Positions 7,192-13,925 of a stretch of DNA of 13,925 nucleotides are shown piece by piece. The notes below the pieces were generated by a model that did no database searches, was not told the origin of the DNA, and saw only the letters and a list, made by a program, of their open reading frames with translations. Positions within the stretch are counted from its first letter, which is position 1. Each line of letters starts with the position of its first letter. A program made the position numbers and the translations under genes. The stretch is from a virus (lineage: Duplodnaviria; Heunggongvirae; Uroviricota; Caudoviricetes): IMG/VR virus record IMGVR_UViG_2684623077_000006; one strand, written 5' to 3'.

Positions 7192-7280
7192 GCCTGCATC
7201 GGTGTGCATTTCTTTTTGTTCTCGTACCGTGAGTCTTGCCGCGTCCTGGTGTTTTCCTCTTTGCATCAGGACTTTTTTTT

Positions 7281-8450
7281 ATGCCGAGAATTATCGAATT
7301 GCGCCAGCAGAAAACCGCCATCAAAAATCAGATGCGCGACATGCTGGAGAACGCGGAAAAAGAAAACCGCAGCCTTAACGACGCCGAGGGCGCAAAATTT
7401 GACGAATTACGCGCTAAAGCTGAATCCCTCGATAAAGACATTTCCCGCCTTGAAGCCGTTGCCGACGAAGAGCGCAGCAAGCCAGGTAAAGCCAGCCAGA
7501 CCACTGACCCCGCAGAACTTCGCAACTACATCGTAACGGGTGACGTTCGCTCATTATCCACCACCACCAACGGCGGCAAGGACGGTGGTTATACCGTTAT
7601 CCCTGAGCTTGATCGCGAGGTTATGCGGTTACTGAGTGATGAAAGCGTCATGCGAATGATTGCGACGGTGAAACCGGCGAAATCAAACGAATACCAGAAA
7701 CTGGTTTCCACAGGTGGCGCAACGGTGGGGCGTGGCACTGAGGGCAACAAGCGAACCGAAACAGAAACCCCGAAAGTTGAGCGCGTAAGCATCAAACTTA
7801 ACCCGATCTATGCCTACCCGAAAACCACGCAGGAAATCCTGGATTTTTCAGAAGTGGATGTGCTGGGCTGGTTATCGTCTGAAATCGCCGACACGTTCGC
7901 CACGACCGAAGAAGATGATTTTGTAAATGGTGACGGTACTGGCAAGCCGAAGGGTTTCCTGAATTACACCCGTGATACCAACAACGACAAAGCCCGCGCC
8001 TTTGGCACCATTGAAAAAATGGTTACAACAACCGACGCCATTACAGCGGACGAACTGATCGACATCCTCTACAAGCTGAAAGCGAAATACCGTAAGAACG
8101 CCGTATGGGTGATGAACTCGAGTACAGCGGCAGCATTGCAGAAGCTGAAAAACCAGAGCGGTGATTACGTATGGCGTGACAGCCTCAAAGAGGGCGCACC
8201 TGACACATTGCTGGGCCGTCCTGTTTATTACCTGGAAAGTATGCCGGACATCGGCAAAGGCAAAACGCCGCTGGCTGTCGGTGACTTTAAGCGCGGTTAT
8301 TTCATCGTTGACCATGAAACGGGGATCCGTACCCGACCGGACAACATTACAGAGCCGGGTTTCTACAAGGTACACACGGACAAATACATCGGCGGCGGGG
8401 TTGTTGACTCCCGCGCGATAAAAGTCCTCGAGATGAAAAACGGCGGTTAA
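7281..8450 (+). CDS. Major capsid protein, HK97 family (389 aa from ATG 7281)
   Basis: N-terminal coiled-coil delta-like region (ELRQQKTAIKNQMRDMLENAEKENRSLNDAEGAKFDELRAKAESLDKDISRLEAV) and HK97-fold body (GDGTGKPKGFL, VWVMNSSTAAALQKL, LLGRPVYYLESMP). ATG is preceded by a T8 run, not an SD; the TTG at 7236 from the ORF track is rejected. Confidence 0.9.
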   Translation: MPRIIELRQQKTAIKNQMRDMLENAEKENRSLNDAEGAKFDELRAKAESLDKDISRLEAVADEERSKPGKASQTTDPAELRNYIVTGDVRSLSTTTNGGKDGGYTVIPELDREVMRLLSDESVMRMIATVKPAKSNEYQKLVSTGGATVGRGTEGNKRTETETPKVERVSIKLNPIYAYPKTTQEILDFSEVDVLGWLSSEIADTFATTEEDDFVNGDGTGKPKGFLNYTRDTNNDKARAFGTIEKMVTTTDAITADELIDILYKLKAKYRKNAVWVMNSSTAAALQKLKNQSGDYVWRDSLKEGAPDTLLGRPVYYLESMPDIGKGKTPLAVGDFKRGYFIVDHETGIRTRPDNITEPGFYKVHTDKYIGGGVVDSRAIKVLEMKNGG

Positions 8451-8485: not shown

Positions 8486-9061
8486 ATGGGTGAAAAAAAT
8501 ATGAAAAAGAGCATGGAAATCCGGTCATCAGAAATCACCACCAGCGGAGCCAGTACGCTGACGGGTTACGTTGTTCGCTGGAATAACCTTTCTGATCTGC
8601 TATGGGGTGAGTTTTACGAAAAATTCCAGCGGGGGGCGTTCAGTGAGTGGCTGGCGGCGGGTAATGACGTTCGCGGCCTGTATGAGCATGACCACAGCAT
8701 GTTACTGGGGCGCACCCGTTCCGGCACGCTGAAACTGGAAGAGGACGACACAGGGTTACGCTTTGAACTGACCCCACCGGATACCAGCACAGGGCGGGAC
8801 GTTATCGAACTGGTTAAACGTGGTGATATATCCGGCATGAGCTTTGGCTTTCGTTCCCGTAAGGATGTATGGGATACCACAACAGATCCATGCGTGCGCA
8901 CCGTGCTGGTGGCGGAACTGTACGAAATTACCGTTACATCCGTACCGGCTTACCCTGATTCCGGCGTGGATCTGGCCCGCCGTTCCCTGTATGAGCAGCA
9001 CCCCGAAAAAATGCCACGCGCGGATAATCGCCGCTGGTGGGCGGATTTAGCGGGGGTGTGA
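8486..9061 (+). CDS. Prohead maturation protease, HK97 family
   Basis: LYEHDHSMLLGRTRSGTLKLEEDDTGLRFEL...GDISGMSFGF...ELYEITVTSVPAYP matches the HK97 prohead protease pattern. Start could be ATG 8486, 8501 or 8513. Confidence 0.85.
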   Translation: MGEKNMKKSMEIRSSEITTSGASTLTGYVVRWNNLSDLLWGEFYEKFQRGAFSEWLAAGNDVRGLYEHDHSMLLGRTRSGTLKLEEDDTGLRFELTPPDTSTGRDVIELVKRGDISGMSFGFRSRKDVWDTTTDPCVRTVLVAELYEITVTSVPAYPDSGVDLARRSLYEQHPEKMPRADNRRWWADLAGV

Positions 9062-9062
9062 T

Positions 9063-10277
9063 ATGTGGCCTTTCAGACGAAAACAAGAGCATCGCAGCCT
9101 TACGCTGGATGAATTTATGGCGCTGGCTGGCACATCGAACACGGGGGCGGGTGAGTACGTATCATCGGGGACAGCGGAATCACTCCCCGCCGTCATGAAC
9201 GCCGTCACGGTCATCTCTGAGGCGGTGGCTACTATGCCATGCTACCTGTACCTGGTACGCAATGAGAAGGGGAAGGAGGCCCGCGAGTGGCTTGATTCTC
9301 ATCCGGTCGATCATATCCTCAACGAGCGCCCGAACGCGTGGCAGACGCCCTATCAGTTTAAGCGAATGATGGTCCGCCACTGCCTGTTAAACGGTAATGC
9401 TTATGCGGTGATTCAGTGGGGGCGTGATGGTTTTCCGGTGGCTTTGCACCCTTACCCGCCGCAGTCGGTGAATGTTGAGCAGACAGGGGAACATAACTGG
9501 CGTTACCGCATCACTGACGCTTACAGCGGAAACACCCGCAACTATTTACCGTGGGAGGTTCTCCACCTTCGTTACTCCACGGATGACGGCTTTATGGGGC
9601 GCTCACCTGTGACCATCTGCCGCGAATCGCTGGGGCTTGGGCTGGCCCAACAGCGCCACGGCGCGAGCGTGATGCGTGATGGCATGATGGCAGCAGGGGT
9701 TATCACGTCAGGCGAATGGCTGGACGGCGTGAAGGGCAAACAGGCATTAGCCGCACTGGAACGCTACAAAGGAGCCAGAAACGCCGGAAAAACGCCCATT
9801 CTTGAAGGGGGTATGAGCTATCAGCAGCTTGGCATGAGTAACCAGGATGCTGAATGGCTGGCCTCCCGTCGCTTCACCATTGAAGACATCGCCCGAATGT
9901 TCAACGTCTCGCCGATTTTTCTGCAGGAATACAGCAACAGCACCTACAGCAATTTCAGCGAGGCAAGCCGCGCGTTTCTGACCATGACGATGCGCCCGTG
10001 GCTGGCGAACTTTGAGCAGCAGATAAAAAATGCTTTGCTGGTGGCCTCGCCTGTACCTGGTATCCGGTATCAGGTGGAGTTTGACAGCGCGGACCTGTTA
10101 CGGGCCACACCTGGCGAACGCTTTGCCACCTATGAACGCGGCATCAAGTCCGGCGTTATGTGCCCGAACGAAGCCCGCGAACGTGAGGGATTATCGCCGC
10201 GTGATGGTGGCGATGAGTTCAGCCAGGCCTGGAAACAGGAGATCGAAGTAAAGGACGATAAAGAGGGCAAATCATGA
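9063..10277 (+). CDS. Portal protein, HK97 family (404 aa)
   Basis: Size and portal-like features; start overlaps the protease stop; GGGGGT SD. Confidence 0.85.
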   Translation: MWPFRRKQEHRSLTLDEFMALAGTSNTGAGEYVSSGTAESLPAVMNAVTVISEAVATMPCYLYLVRNEKGKEAREWLDSHPVDHILNERPNAWQTPYQFKRMMVRHCLLNGNAYAVIQWGRDGFPVALHPYPPQSVNVEQTGEHNWRYRITDAYSGNTRNYLPWEVLHLRYSTDDGFMGRSPVTICRESLGLGLAQQRHGASVMRDGMMAAGVITSGEWLDGVKGKQALAALERYKGARNAGKTPILEGGMSYQQLGMSNQDAEWLASRRFTIEDIARMFNVSPIFLQEYSNSTYSNFSEASRAFLTMTMRPWLANFEQQIKNALLVASPVPGIRYQVEFDSADLLRATPGERFATYERGIKSGVMCPNEAREREGLSPRDGGDEFSQAWKQEIEVKDDKEGKS

Positions 10278-10612
10278 GAGCGGGGAGCATGAGGGATCGC
10301 ATTGTCATCATGAGCGCGAAACTTTCCCGCCTCCCTTCCGGTGCAATGAAAAGCACATGGGAGGATGTTGCCACCGTATGGGCGGAGGTGAAAGGGATCA
10401 GCGGACGGGAACGCATGACCGCAGGTGCAGAAACGGCACAGGCAACCGTAAGAGTCTGGATCCGTTTTCGTGGGGATGTTACGGCATCCAGCCGGATACG
10501 GGTACTCACGGGGGCTTATTCCGGCAATGAGCTTGATATTGTTGGCCCCCCCGTTCCCGACGGTAAAAGGACTCGTCTGGAAATTCTTTGTAAAACAGGT
10601 GCGCCACGATGA
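10274..10612 (+). CDS. Head closure / head-tail adaptor protein (SPP1 gp16-like family)
   Basis: 112-aa protein with the DRIVI...WEDVATVWAEVKGISGRE...VRVWIRFRGDVT pattern; ATGA overlap with the portal stop. Confidence 0.7.
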   Translation: MRAGSMRDRIVIMSAKLSRLPSGAMKSTWEDVATVWAEVKGISGRERMTAGAETAQATVRVWIRFRGDVTASSRIRVLTGAYSGNELDIVGPPVPDGKRTRLEILCKTGAPR

Positions 10613-10905
10613 CAGCAGAATTAATCACCCTGGAAGAAGTGAAACTCCATTGCCGCATTGATGGCAATGAGGAAGACCAGTTAATCAGCGGATACATCGC
10701 CGCCGCGCTTGAGGTGTGCCAGAAACACATCGGCAGGCGCTTTGATGACGGGCTGGAGTTCACGCCAGCCATAAAGATTGGCTGCATGATGTACGTGTCG
10801 CAACTGTACGAATACAGGGCCACGGTCGGGGATGCAGACACAAAAGAAATCCCGCTGGCTGTAGGGATGCTCTGGTCGGTTTATCGTGATGTGGGGGTGT
10901 ACTGA
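10609..10905 (+). CDS. Head-tail connector protein, gp6-like
   Basis: 98-aa protein beginning MTAELITLEEVKLHCRIDGNEEDQLISGYIAAALEVCQKHIGRRF; ATGA overlap with the previous gene. Confidence 0.7.
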   Translation: MTAELITLEEVKLHCRIDGNEEDQLISGYIAAALEVCQKHIGRRFDDGLEFTPAIKIGCMMYVSQLYEYRATVGDADTKEIPLAVGMLWSVYRDVGVY

Positions 10906-11345
10906 TGCCGTGGCAACCATTAAGGCGATGCACTGAGCCGGGCTGTAATAAGCGCGTGAAGTCCGGCAAGTGTGAAGAGCACAGGCGGGCTGCATGGCGT
11001 GCAGAGGATGCCAGACGGGGACACCGCCGCGCACGTGGGTATTCCCGACAGTGGGACAAATACCGCGCCATGTACCTGAAAAAAAATCCGTTATGTGTGC
11101 GTTGTCTGGCTGAGGGTATTTATACGCCAGCCTTTGTGGTGGATCACATTATCCCCATCAATGGTGGCGGTGATGTTCTCTTCTGGCCTGAGTGGAATCA
11201 CCAGGCATTGTGCCAGACGTGCCACAACCGTAAGACGACGCGGGAAGATCCCGCCACGAAAGCAAACCGTAAAGCGGGCATGTATCGCGAGCAGGAAGAA
11301 CGGGCGGCACACCGTAACGACTGGATGTATGGCGATGATGACTGA
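10905..11345 (+). CDS. HNH endonuclease (packaging-associated)
   Basis: CxxPGC and CxxC Zn-finger-like motifs plus the HNH core DHIIPINGGGDVLFWPEWNHQALCQTCHNRKT; positioned just upstream of the terminase genes as in HK97-like cos packaging modules. Confidence 0.85.
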   Translation: MPWQPLRRCTEPGCNKRVKSGKCEEHRRAAWRAEDARRGHRRARGYSRQWDKYRAMYLKKNPLCVRCLAEGIYTPAFVVDHIIPINGGGDVLFWPEWNHQALCQTCHNRKTTREDPATKANRKAGMYREQEERAAHRNDWMYGDDD

Positions 11346-11514
11346 ACAGGAACAAAACAGGCTGATTCGTGGACTGATAAGGCAGCATGACGCATGGAAG
11401 ACACAGGAGACAGGGCACAAAGCCAACAGGACAGGGCGCACAGAACGCACCACCGCGAAGCGATTAACCGACCGTGACCGCGAGGTCATGGAATGTTTTC
11501 GCAATCGCTGGTGA
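11335..11514 (+). CDS. Hypothetical small basic protein (59 aa)
   Basis: ORF MMTEQEQNRLIRGLIRQHDAWKTQETGHKANRTGRTERTTAKRLTDRDREVMECFRNRW overlapping the HNH stop; start could be 11329, 11335 or 11338. Confidence 0.35.
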   Translation: MMTEQEQNRLIRGLIRQHDAWKTQETGHKANRTGRTERTTAKRLTDRDREVMECFRNRW

Positions 11515-11633
11515 GGCCGTCAGAGGGGGTGGGGGTGGTTTTCAGGACGAAACCGTCCCTGCCGGACACCGACCGCCTCCCCAAATTTTTATGCACGGGA
11601 ATTTTTTGAAAAATAATCTGACGAAAAATAAGC
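11515..11633. other. Structured G-rich intergenic region upstream of terS, candidate cos/packaging recognition region
   Basis: G-runs (agagggggtgggggtgg), hairpin ggacg-aaac-cgtcc, a C-rich partner (ccgcctcccc), then an A/T-rich tract before the terS ATG. Confidence 0.25.
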
Positions 11634-11990
11634 ATGGCAAGACCACCGAAAGCCCCCGCCTACCTGGATGATATCGCCGTGAAGCAGTGGCGGGAAAAAT
11701 CGCGGCAGCTTGCGGAACGGGGAGACCTGACCCCCGCCGACTGGAGCAATCTGGAACTGTATTGCGTCAACTACTCCATTTACCGGAAAGCCGTTGCAGA
11801 CCTTGCGGCGCGCGGGTTCAGCATTGTTAACAGTCAGGGCGGCGAGAGCAGAAACCCCGCATTAAGCGCAAAATCCGACGCTGAAAGAGTGATGATAAAA
11901 ATGGCCTCCTTGCTCGGTTTTGACCCGATAAGCCGCCGTAAAAATCCACCGGAAACAGAAGAAGAGGACGAGCTTGACCGCCTGGAATAA
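11634..11990 (+). CDS. terS: Terminase small subunit, P27 family
   Basis: 118-aa protein with the LDDIAVKQWREKSRQLAERGDLTPADWSNLELYCVNYSIYRKAV...NPALSAKSDAERVMIKMASLLGFDPISRRK pattern. Confidence 0.8.
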   Translation: MARPPKAPAYLDDIAVKQWREKSRQLAERGDLTPADWSNLELYCVNYSIYRKAVADLAARGFSIVNSQGGESRNPALSAKSDAERVMIKMASLLGFDPISRRKNPPETEEEDELDRLE

Positions 11991-13635
11991 GTACGCAGAA
12001 GACGTAAAAACGGGCAAAATTCCGGCCTGTAAACGGCTGAAACAGGCCGTTAAACGGTACTTTTCGGACCTTGAAAGCCCCCTTTACACGTTCGATCGTG
12101 AGGTTGTGGAGCGGTTTATTGCCTTTTCCAGGGTGTGCGCGCACGTAAAAGGGCCGATGCGTGGCAGACCCATTGAGCTGGAGCCGTGGCAGCAGTTCGC
12201 CTTTGCGTGCATCCTCGGCTTTAAGGTTAAGGCCACCGGACGGCGCAAATACACGAGCGCCTTTATCGAAGTGCCGCGCAAAAATGCGAAATCCACGACC
12301 GCCGCGATTCTGGCTAACTGGTTTCTGATTATGGAGAACGGTCAGCAGGATATCTACACCGCAGCGGTGAGCCGTGACCAGGCGCGGATCGTCTTTGATG
12401 ATGCGCGTCAGATGTGCCTTTTATCCCGACCGTTACGCAGGCGGGTGAATATTCAGGCGCATAAGGTGATACACCCGAAAACCAACAGCCTGTTAAAGCC
12501 ACTGGCAGCAAAAGCGGCAACCATTGAGGGGACAAACCCGAGTCTTGCCATTGTGGATGAATATCACCTGCACCCAGACAACGGGGTTTATTCCGCACTT
12601 GATATGGGGATGGGCGCACGTCCCGAAGGGCTGTTATTTGCCATTACCACATCGGGCAGTAACGTCGTTTCAGCCTGTAAGCAGCACTATGATTATTGCT
12701 GCCAGATCCTGGACGGCGAAGAGGTCAACGATTCAATTTTTGTACTGATTTACGAACTGGACGACGAAAACGAGGTTGATGATCCGGCGATGTGGATAAA
12801 GGCTAACCCTAACATCGATGTTTCCGTCGATCGTGAAAAACTGGCCTCAACCATCCAGAAAGCGCGGGGTATTCCGTCGCAATGGGTGGAAATGCTCACC
12901 AAGCGATTCAATATCTGGTGTCAGGGGGCTACGCCGTGGATGGGTAACGGTGCATGGGCGGAGTGTGCCGGAACGTTCGCGGAGGCGGATTTATACGGGC
13001 AGGAGTGCTACGCGGGGCTGGACTTATCATCAACCAGCGATATTTCCAGCGTGTGCTATGCCTTCCCGGTCGGTAAAAAGATTATGCTGGTTTCCCGTCA
13101 CTATCTGCCGGAATTTCAGCTACAGAATCCCGCCAATAAAAACCGCGCCATCTATCGCCAGTGGGTAAAGGCGGGCTGGATACGCACAACACCGGGTGAC
13201 TGCATTGATTATGACCGTATCCGTGATGACATCATGGCGGATGCAGAGAATTTCAATATCAGGCTGGTGGGCTTCGATACATGGAACGCCACGCACCTGA
13301 GGACGCAGTTACAGGGCGCAGGATTTGAGGTGGAGCCGTTCCCGCAAACCTACCTCAGATTCAGTCCGGCGGCGAAATCGTTCGAAGTTTTTGTTAACCG
13401 GAAGGTGATTGTGCATCGTGGTGATCCGGTGCTGGCCTGGTCAATGAGTAATGTTGTGATGCAGAGTGACGCGAACGCCAATATCAAGCCGAACAAGAAA
13501 AAATCATCCAACAAGATAGACCCGAGCGTTGCGGCGCTGATGGCGTTTGGCACATTCCAGGCAGAGCACGAGGACTTTGCATTCGATATGAGCGACAGCC
13601 ACAAAGAGCGGCTTGCGGCGTTTGATGGGGTATGA
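11974..13635 (+). CDS. terL: Terminase large subunit (HK97-like Terminase_1 family)
   Basis: 553-aa protein with ATPase Walker A-like FIEVPRKNAKSTTAA, Walker B-like LAIVDEYH and a C-terminal nuclease region (VGFDTWNA). Apparent TTG start at 11974 with GAAGAGGA SD, overlapping the terS 3' end; the first in-frame ATG is about 60 codons in. Confidence 0.9.
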   Translation: MTAWNKYAEDVKTGKIPACKRLKQAVKRYFSDLESPLYTFDREVVERFIAFSRVCAHVKGPMRGRPIELEPWQQFAFACILGFKVKATGRRKYTSAFIEVPRKNAKSTTAAILANWFLIMENGQQDIYTAAVSRDQARIVFDDARQMCLLSRPLRRRVNIQAHKVIHPKTNSLLKPLAAKAATIEGTNPSLAIVDEYHLHPDNGVYSALDMGMGARPEGLLFAITTSGSNVVSACKQHYDYCCQILDGEEVNDSIFVLIYELDDENEVDDPAMWIKANPNIDVSVDREKLASTIQKARGIPSQWVEMLTKRFNIWCQGATPWMGNGAWAECAGTFAEADLYGQECYAGLDLSSTSDISSVCYAFPVGKKIMLVSRHYLPEFQLQNPANKNRAIYRQWVKAGWIRTTPGDCIDYDRIRDDIMADAENFNIRLVGFDTWNATHLRTQLQGAGFEVEPFPQTYLRFSPAAKSFEVFVNRKVIVHRGDPVLAWSMSNVVMQSDANANIKPNKKKSSNKIDPSVAALMAFGTFQAEHEDFAFDMSDSHKERLAAFDGV

Positions 13636-13925
13636 CGAGAATGAGCGAAACCGAACTACTAAAAATAATCCGCCGTGTTACCGGAGCCAGCCAGACAGCA
13701 GACAAACAGGAGGCCACGCAGCCGGACAGCGTGATAGCCGAAAATTACGCGCGTGTGGTGGCTGAGGTGATGCGCCGTGACGGTATTGAGCTTAACGGCG
13801 TGGATATGCGCAACATACGAACCAGAGTCCTTGAGTTGCTGGCATACCGTCGCCGTTCTCAACAACGGAGGGAGAGCGCGAAAAATACTTATCAGTGGAA
13901 GAAGCCGGAACGGTTGCGGCGGTAA
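13632..13925 (+). CDS. Hypothetical protein (94-97 aa) downstream of terL
   Basis: ORF overlapping the terL stop (ATGA); alternative ATG at 13641; ends with TAA exactly at the window end. Confidence 0.5.
   Translation: MTRMSETELLKIIRRVTGASQTADKQEATQPDSVIAENYARVVAEVMRRDGIELNGVDMRNIRTRVLELLAYRRRSQQRRESAKNTYQWKKPERLRR

Follow-up and report, generated by a model that had tools for sequence, protein, structure and literature searches.

A probable HK97-type cos site between the HNH and terS genes of an Escherichia coli capsid-forming island

The packaging locus and its features

The DNA stretch of 13,925 nt analyzed in this work (hereafter the window) is an Escherichia coli capsid-forming phage-inducible chromosomal island (cf-PICI). 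According to the cf-PICI literature, packaging depends on an HNH endonuclease acting with the small and large terminase subunits (TerS and TerL), and the packaged DNA forms cohesive-end concatemers; in the same literature we found no mapped cohesive-end (cos) site for any cf-PICI. Here we analyzed the non-coding interval of 119 bp located between the HNH gene region and terS (positions 11515-11633 of the window) as the candidate cos site of this island. The features of the locus are as follows:

10905-11345, plus strand: HNH endonuclease, cofactor for packaging by HK97-type terminases (Pfam HNH PF01844, E 1.9e-9)
11335-11514 (alternative starts 11329 and 11338), plus strand: small basic open reading frame (ORF), 59 aa, PHROG 3173, function unknown
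11523-11538, plus strand: G-run GAGGGGGTGGGGGTGG, conserved upstream subsite of the candidate cos, ending 41 nt before the predicted top-strand cut
11539-11563: TTTTCAGGAC, then a spacer constant in length but variable in sequence, which includes a lineage-specific hairpin
11564-11579, plus strand: GGACACCGACCGCCTC, predicted C-rich right-end recognition and cleavage block (from the alignment to HK97 and phiE125)
11580-11590, plus strand: CCCAAATTTTT, opening bases of the predicted left end, including the most conserved block, AAATTTTT
11591-11616, plus strand: ATGCACGGGAATTTTTTGAAAAATAA, predicted TerS-binding box with a T-tract
11634-11990, plus strand: terS, P27-family small terminase (Pfam Terminase_4 PF05119, E 1.3e-23)
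11974-13635, plus strand: terL, HK97-type large terminase (Pfam TerL_ATPase and TerL_nuclease)

The elements listed in the initial annotation of this region are present: the terS ATG at 11634 directly follows the 119 non-coding nucleotides, the G-run and a C-run (CCGCCTCCCC, 11573-11582) lie within them, and the arginine-rich ORF of 59 codons is open and overlaps the HNH gene by 11 nt. The GGGGGTGGGGG part of the G-run occurs only once in the 13.9-kb window, both strands counted. The entire core of the candidate site is enclosed by a perfect 7-bp inverted repeat, CGTCAGA at 11518-11524 and TCTGACG at 11617-11623, which was not found in the other E. coli lineage looked at.

Conservation of sequence and spacing

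Related loci were collected from IMG/VR, phage records, and GTDB (one genome per species; TerS alignment used), and 32 lineages were aligned, comprising Escherichia, Klebsiella, Aeromonas, Citrobacter, Winslowiella, Serratia, Rahnella, Erwinia, Xenorhabdus, Photorhabdus, Proteus, Providencia, Kosakonia, Intestinirhabdus, Gilliamella, Frischella, Haemophilus, Avibacterium, Mannheimia, and Pasteurella. Throughout this alignment the order of the blocks is constant (G-run, spacer of fixed length, GGACACCGACCGCCTC, CCCAAATTTTT, and ATGCACGGGAATTTTTTGAAAAATAA), and their spacing is nearly free of insertions and deletions. Related islands with this layout come from >20 genera. The mean frequency of the majority base is highest in the T-tract (0.99) and in AAATTTTT (0.96), followed by CACCGA (0.86), GAAAAATAA (0.85), the C-run and ATGCACGGGAA (0.82 each), and the G-run (0.76, with four invariant columns). 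The spacer reaches only about 0.60-0.64, although indels are nearly absent from it across genera, and the flanks of the interval just 0.43-0.53. In the 50-nt core (11567-11616), mean identity to the window is 79%, compared with 39% at the four-fold degenerate sites of terS in the same loci, which means that the non-coding core is about as constrained as the TerS protein. In loci that seemed to be devoid of the motif, it was found approximately 230 nt 5' of terS.

In Xenorhabdus hominickii (locus L249), the G-run is enlarged to five tandem GGGGTA units, a tract that could in principle form a G-quadruplex, while the remaining part of the site is unaltered. In Shigella flexneri SFBU1023 (locus L210), a deletion at approximately 1480-1520 of the locus takes out the core together with the start of terS; it is bounded by short CCCCGCC direct repeats, one in the spacer and the other in terS codons 6-8, and this copy of the island has presumably lost the ability to package itself.

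Homology to mapped cos sites and the predicted cut

The island TerL and HNH proteins are homologous to their HK97 counterparts (27% identity to gp2 across the full length, E 2e-48, and 36% identity to gp74, E 3e-17, respectively). In contrast, no similarity could be detected between the island TerS and HK97 gp1, which has no Pfam match. In HK97, cleavage of cos falls between -1 and +1 and leaves a 10-nt 3' overhang, and the TerS-binding site spans +15 to +29 (PMC11331095, PMC9410871); the HK97 record ends with GACCGCCGCCAAA and starts with GTTTGAATTTAACGCTAACCCGATTTTTTT. In Burkholderia phages phiE125 and phi644-2, whose TerS, like that of the island, belongs to the P27 family, the right 3' overhang is 5'-CGCCCGCTTC-3', also 10 nt (PMC2920897), and it equals the final 10 nt of the phiE125 record, which ends with GGGACCGCCCGCTTC and starts with GTCGAATTTTCACGC.

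In a multiple alignment, the HK97 and phiE125 junctions share one column, which corresponds to the step between 11579 and 11580 in the window, and the core aligns without gaps. The alignment is anchored by ACCG, 12 nt before the junction, and by A(C/T)GC, whose end lies 15 nt after it. At this position the island reads ACACCGACCGCCTC before and CCCAAATTTTTATGC after the predicted cut, to which phiE125 GGACCGCCCGCTTC and GTCGAATTTTCACGC align gap-free. The record of the Gordonia phage Zirinka, ending with GCGGACACCGGCTGGGGA and resuming with GCTCGCTTTTTACACGC, falls in the same register, its junction likewise lying 8 nt past GGACACCG, and over +1 to +11 the island CCCAAATTTTT is homologous to phiE125 GTCGAATTTTC and Zirinka GCTCGCTTTTT. 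The end of the G-run precedes the junction by 41-42 nt in HK97, phiE125 (42 nt), and Zirinka, and the same holds for the island by prediction. The start of a T- or A-tract lies between +23 and +26 in HK97, phiE125, Sfi21, and the island (+23 in the island and +24 in HK97). Transferred to the window, the HK97 TerS site at +15 to +29 corresponds to 11594-11608.

These alignments predict a top-strand cut between 11579 and 11580 and a bottom-strand cut between 11569 and 11570. As regards the resulting cohesive end, CGACCGCCTC (11570-11579), our confidence that it is correct to within 3 nt slightly outweighs our doubt. Our first pairwise alignment to HK97 (z 5.9 versus shuffles) had placed the cut 6 nt further right, after AAA at 11585; this register was rejected because it breaks the anchors given by the phiE125 multiple alignment and the Zirinka comparison.

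The initial annotation had proposed a comparison with the cos of the helper phage, and we made it with HK106, the helper of the prototype cf-PICI, whose cos is essentially the same as that of HK97. Global alignment of the island site to the HK106 cos gave z 5.9, and 0 of 1000 shuffles aligned equally well. The two sites are homologous but diverged, which fits the reported independent packaging of phage and island.

Particle-derived contig ends and a breakpoint in the predicted overhang

The assembly vB_KppS-Ant (LR881103), made from particle DNA of Klebsiella pneumoniae DSM 30104 sequenced as a Nextera XT library, is >99% identical to a region of that strain (PMC8006926). The source paper labels it a filamentous single-stranded DNA prophage; we found it to be the cf-PICI of this strain (locus L002). 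Over 1400 nt at its right end and 1800 nt at its left end, it is 100% identical to the chromosomal copy (ATCC 13883), and the linear contig lacks the 69 nt between its ends (GAACACGAGGGCGCCAGGCACCACCCGCCCC, then CTCAAATTTTTTCGCACGGTGATTTTTTTGAAAATAAA). This gap, equivalent to 11549-11620 in the window, is divided by the predicted cut into 31 and 38 nt. Libraries prepared with a transposase are expected to lose a few tens of bases at each physical end. In the same record, a 765-aa ORF located 3' of terL carries a tape measure protein annotation.

A weaker observation comes from the Pseudomonas phage contig KM389226, which starts approximately 3 nt inside the homologous left end. The cf-PICI segment of PQ569648 also ends in the interval, which is weak support, as this assembly is chimeric. 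The latter record (Klebsiella phage P12620-1; loci L084 and L290) is presented as a complete genome of 106.5 kb, and its final ~15.9 kb are a cf-PICI, with the join at the second base of terS and the end within the small ORF. One further IMG/VR locus (L144) stops 21 nt beyond CAGGAC, apparently at a storage-chunk boundary, and was set aside.

The window itself is a mosaic. It matches one E. coli cf-PICI lineage (L055-type) through 11577 and then diverges from it, whereas it shows zero mismatches to another such lineage (L010-type) from 11574 to approximately 12000 and is divergent from it upstream. The crossover at 11574-11577 therefore falls within the predicted 10-nt overhang, and this position would fit a double-strand end or cohesive-end joining at the site.

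Search for structure and transcription signals

The initial annotation had described the interval as structured, with a short hairpin and a C-rich partner of the G-runs. The hairpin is present (GGACG-AAAC-CGTCC, 11545-11558) and locally stable in the window (z -2.3 for a 30-nt stretch); it is nevertheless specific to a lineage, the mean z over the 32 lineages being +0.11. The 119 nt as a whole do not fold significantly beyond shuffled sequences (DNA z -1.41, RNA z -1.66), which together with the lack of hairpin conservation leaves the term "structured" unsupported. For the helix between the G-run and the C-run, taken from the minimum-free-energy fold, 67.5% of alignment cells can pair compared with 66.1% after shuffling, a value reached by 45 of 500 shuffles, and the covariation score equals the shuffle mean; the two runs do not covary in the way expected of a stem. 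RNAalifold gave a consensus of -1.0 kcal/mol for the alignment, that is, essentially no structure. No Rfam match was obtained at E<=1, no plus-strand promoter was found in the scan, and the few promoter or terminator matches were weak and equal to the level of shuffled sequences; we rejected both a transcription signal and an RNA or single-stranded DNA structure. Conserved sequence and spacing without conserved pairing are the signature of protein-recognition sites on duplex DNA.

The small basic ORF

The ORF preceding the interval encodes MMTEQEQNRLIRGLIRQHDAWKTQETGHKANRTGRTERTTAKRLTDRDREVMECFRNRW, a product with 11 arginines and an isoelectric point of 10.7. Lineages share the ATG at 11338 as their start codon, while the NCBI annotation pipeline (PGAP) calls a 61-aa version from 11329 in a 99.5% identical genome and annotates it as a hypothetical protein. 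The product matches the PHROG 3173 profile over positions 1-57 of 57 (E 1.6e-29), as do three divergent homologs from other lineages; in a large protein collection, the only name it carries is "hypothetical protein". Selection acts on the reading frame: the ratio of non-synonymous to synonymous polymorphism (pN/pS) is 0.29 for the C-terminal 18 codons across families, and within the family of this ORF, the corresponding substitution ratio (dN/dS) is 0.37. Indels of the central linker preserve the frame, changes in ...ECFRNR fall at third codon positions, and the C-terminal RDRE(V/L)(M/R)ECFRNR is conserved across genera. AlphaFold2 predicted a long helix at the N-terminus and a short one at the C-terminus, joined by a disordered basic linker, with a mean local confidence (pLDDT) of 75.5 and a predicted template modeling score (pTM) of 0.36; a model of just two helices with such a pTM is too simple for a meaningful fold search. 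The ORF is thus a real gene, accessory, located beside the cos.

It was found in Escherichia, Klebsiella, Kosakonia, Erwinia, Rahnella, Rosenbergiella, Proteus, Providencia, and one Photorhabdus. Most Xenorhabdus lack it, as do the Pasteurellaceae, Gilliamella, Serratia, Aeromonas, and a single Citrobacter; the cos layout is retained in every one of these groups. The ORF is therefore not a required component of the site, contrary to the initial annotation, which had counted it as part of the candidate determinant; an accessory role is possible. Small ORFs unrelated to it also occur between the HNH gene and cos, namely one of 72 aa in Acinetobacter phage AbIPP1 (L087) and an unannotated frame in HK97 (L089), and small genes may recur at the end that is packaged last.

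Genomic context of the island

Apart from the packaging locus, the window contains the following genes:

1-1239: integrase
3756-5504: primase
7236-8450: major capsid protein
8486-9061: prohead protease
9063-10277: portal protein
10274-10612: head completion protein
10609-10905: connector

Integrase, primase and replication genes, and a complete capsid and packaging module (with Pfam matches to capsid, protease, portal, head completion, connector, HNH, TerS, and TerL) are combined with zero tail genes in an island of approximately 15 kb, which identifies the element as a cf-PICI. A 99.5% identical copy, flanked by gcd and hpt and likewise devoid of tail genes, is carried by E. coli SB0258h1, and the HNH-terS stretch was found in 514 of 5426 complete E. 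coli genomes. At 13632-13925, an ORF overlapping the terL stop and running out of the window end matches PHROG 1561 (function unknown, E 2.8e-50); it is a further candidate for the "hypothetical gene" of the packaging module described in the cf-PICI paper. Individual genomes carry many of these islands, for example six loci each in Xenorhabdus kozodoii and Xenorhabdus innexi and eight in Pasteurellaceae bacterium "Macca" (L219-L287 for the Xenorhabdus species and L272-L279 for "Macca"). Several short contigs of these islands break near terS, probably owing to assembly collapse of repeats.

Discussion

We conclude that the interval between the small ORF and terS is, with high probability, the HK97-type (HNH-dependent) cos site of this island. 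Three lines of evidence lead to this reading, namely the deep conservation of the non-coding DNA, the gapless homology of its core to mapped sites, and the particle-derived contig ends of a sister element, which bracket the site. The gene order (HNH, small ORF, 119-bp gap, terS, and terL), the homology of TerL and HNH to those of HK97, and the position of the interval relative to mapped cos sites are those of an HK97-type system, and the suggestion of the initial annotation that the island carries its own packaging signal here is supported by the three lines above.

By analogy with HK97, the site would span 11523-11616 and work as double-stranded DNA. On replicated concatemers, the island TerS would bind the ATGCACGGGAATTTTTTGAAAAATAA box, 12-37 bp to the right of the cut, and TerL together with the HNH protein would nick the two strands at the predicted positions (top strand between 11579 and 11580, bottom strand between 11569 and 11570), leaving a 10-nt 3' overhang, 5'-CGACCGCCTC-3'. 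Packaging would then proceed rightward through terS, terL, the joined attachment (att) site, int, the replication genes, the capsid genes, HNH, and the small ORF, and would stop at the next cos. The G-run, approximately four helical turns upstream of the cut, would sit at the last-packaged end, where it probably acts as a second subsite, either in positioning or in the cut that ends packaging.

Several points weigh against this interpretation or limit its precision. The vB_KppS-Ant record may have been trimmed or rotated by its depositors, PQ569648 is chimeric and just loosely consistent with the site, and a metagenome scan covering 75 loci found zero contigs ending there. The precision of the cut in this island rests wholly on alignment. 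The island TerS has no sequence relation to that of HK97, which makes the transfer of the HK97 TerS-site assignment an analogy. Finally, phage Sfi21, with a P27-family TerS and mapped ends, has a C-run instead of a G-run upstream and an overhang of 15 nt, indicating that the layout is common, not universal.

Alternatively, the interval could mainly be an RNA or transcription element, such as a terminator, a promoter or leader of terS-terL, or a structured RNA formed by the G-run and the C-run. Minimum-free-energy folds do join the two runs, with a T-run following, and one weak terminator-like match covers 11517-11532; however, the fold z-scores of merely -1.4 and -1.7, a helix at the shuffle level, the RNAalifold consensus, and the empty Rfam and promoter scans, together with the conservation of sequence and spacing as expected of protein sites on duplex DNA, make this reading very improbable. 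Even less credible, to the point of being almost negligible, is headful packaging, in which the interval would be a pac site without fixed ends. Phages that use pac also have TerS recognition sites near terS, but an HNH gene combined with an HK97-type TerL is the signature of cos packaging, packaged cf-PICI DNA was reported to form cohesive-end concatemers, and the vB_KppS-Ant contig is linear and of unit length, with both ends at the site.

Within the cos interpretation, two further alternatives concern details. The cut or its polarity could deviate from our prediction, for example by lying after 11585, by leaving a 5' overhang, or by producing an overhang of another length, and the nicks could follow the distance from the TerS box instead of the C-rich block. 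The first pairwise HK97 alignment did set the cut after 11585, the vB_KppS-Ant gap is too wide to separate alternative positions, and relatives differ in overhang length (10 nt for HK97 and phiE125, 11 nt for PhiS63, and 15 nt for Sfi21). Nevertheless, the coincidence of the HK97 and phiE125 junctions in a gap-free core, with Zirinka in register and with anchors that the 11585 register breaks, renders such a deviation unlikely. It is less remote, albeit still doubtful, that in carrier lineages the small ORF product belongs to the packaging determinant as a cos-binding or DNA-bending protein or as a specificity factor of the terminase or HNH protein, without which packaging would lose efficiency or exclusivity. 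The ORF is under purifying selection, it encodes a basic two-helix protein within the packaging operon, and in nearly all carriers its stop and the GTGGGGG of the G-run are a constant 17 nt apart (14 nt in the window owing to an extra Trp codon). In the cf-PICI paper (Alqurainy et al.), mutation of the packaging-module "hypothetical gene 1792" cut transfer severely; we could not match this gene to the small ORF, and the ECO95 fragment is not from EDL933. On the other hand, the same cos layout occurs in many lineages without the ORF, its presence tracks no cos sequence variant, frameshifted or truncated copies exist, and the product has neither a DNA-binding domain match nor a compact fold.

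The closest known systems include HK97 and HK106. There, as in the island with its predicted cut, the HNH gene and terS flank the site, the end of the G-run precedes the cut by 41-42 nt, a block of the ACCGCC type extends up to the cut, A(C/T)GC occupies +12 to +15, and the T-tract starts at +23 or +24. The island differs from HK97 in its P27-family (Terminase_4) TerS, which is unrelated in sequence to gp1, in the predicted overhang (CGACCGCCTC compared with CGCCGCCAAA), and in the sequence of the TerS box, and from both phages in being a tail-less satellite of approximately 15 kb. Phage phiE125, a full-size siphovirus from a different branch of the host phylum, has an A-tract downstream in place of the T-tract and no PHROG 3173 ORF. 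The resemblance to the lambda cos (cosQ-cosN-cosB) is a functional analogy only: both comprise a nicking site, a region for TerS binding toward the end packaged first, and an upstream element toward the end packaged last, and by this analogy the island G-run may play a cosQ-like role. In lambda, however, the overhang is 5' and 12 nt long, packaging proceeds without an HNH protein, gpNu1 R-sites and IHF are used, and there is zero sequence similarity to the island. SaPIbov5, P4, and classical E. coli PICIs using Rpp are, like the island, satellites packaged from cos. SaPIbov5 and P4 copy the cos of their helper, and these two as well as the Rpp-using PICIs employ the helper terminase, whereas the island possesses its own HNH, TerS, and TerL and a diverged cos.

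A broader proposal, which we put forward as speculation that is somewhat harder to accept than a role for the small ORF alone, is that HK97-type cos sites share a fixed-distance, three-part layout consisting of a G-run ending approximately 42 bp upstream, a cleavage block, and an A/T-tract box approximately 23-26 bp downstream. Such a layout appears in elements of Proteobacteria, Actinobacteria, and Firmicutes, including those whose TerS proteins share no sequence relationship. The G-run may then be an undescribed subsite that is read by the conserved TerL/HNH pair and measures out the terminating cut like a ruler, the PHROG 3173 protein may be a lineage-specific specificity or efficiency factor acting on it, and the breakpoint in the overhang may record the exchange of island halves by cohesive-end joining or cos-stimulated recombination. 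The conserved G-run at a fixed distance of ~42 bp, present even in combination with unrelated TerS proteins, is the only feature of which we found no description in the searchable literature, which does not in itself establish that it is new.

A specialist would expect a cos at this location, and the conserved distances are the only mildly new element. The prediction defines a minimal cassette of ~95 bp (11523-11616) for transduction of cos plasmids and for the engineering of cf-PICI particles, and it pinpoints the overhang and the TerS box as the differences between the island and HK106 cos sites. The site also provides an anchor sequence for locating such islands and for judging whether they are intact, as illustrated by the Shigella copy that has lost the core by deletion. 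cf-PICIs spread across species with their own capsids, filled with their own DNA only, and it is the cos that confers this specificity.

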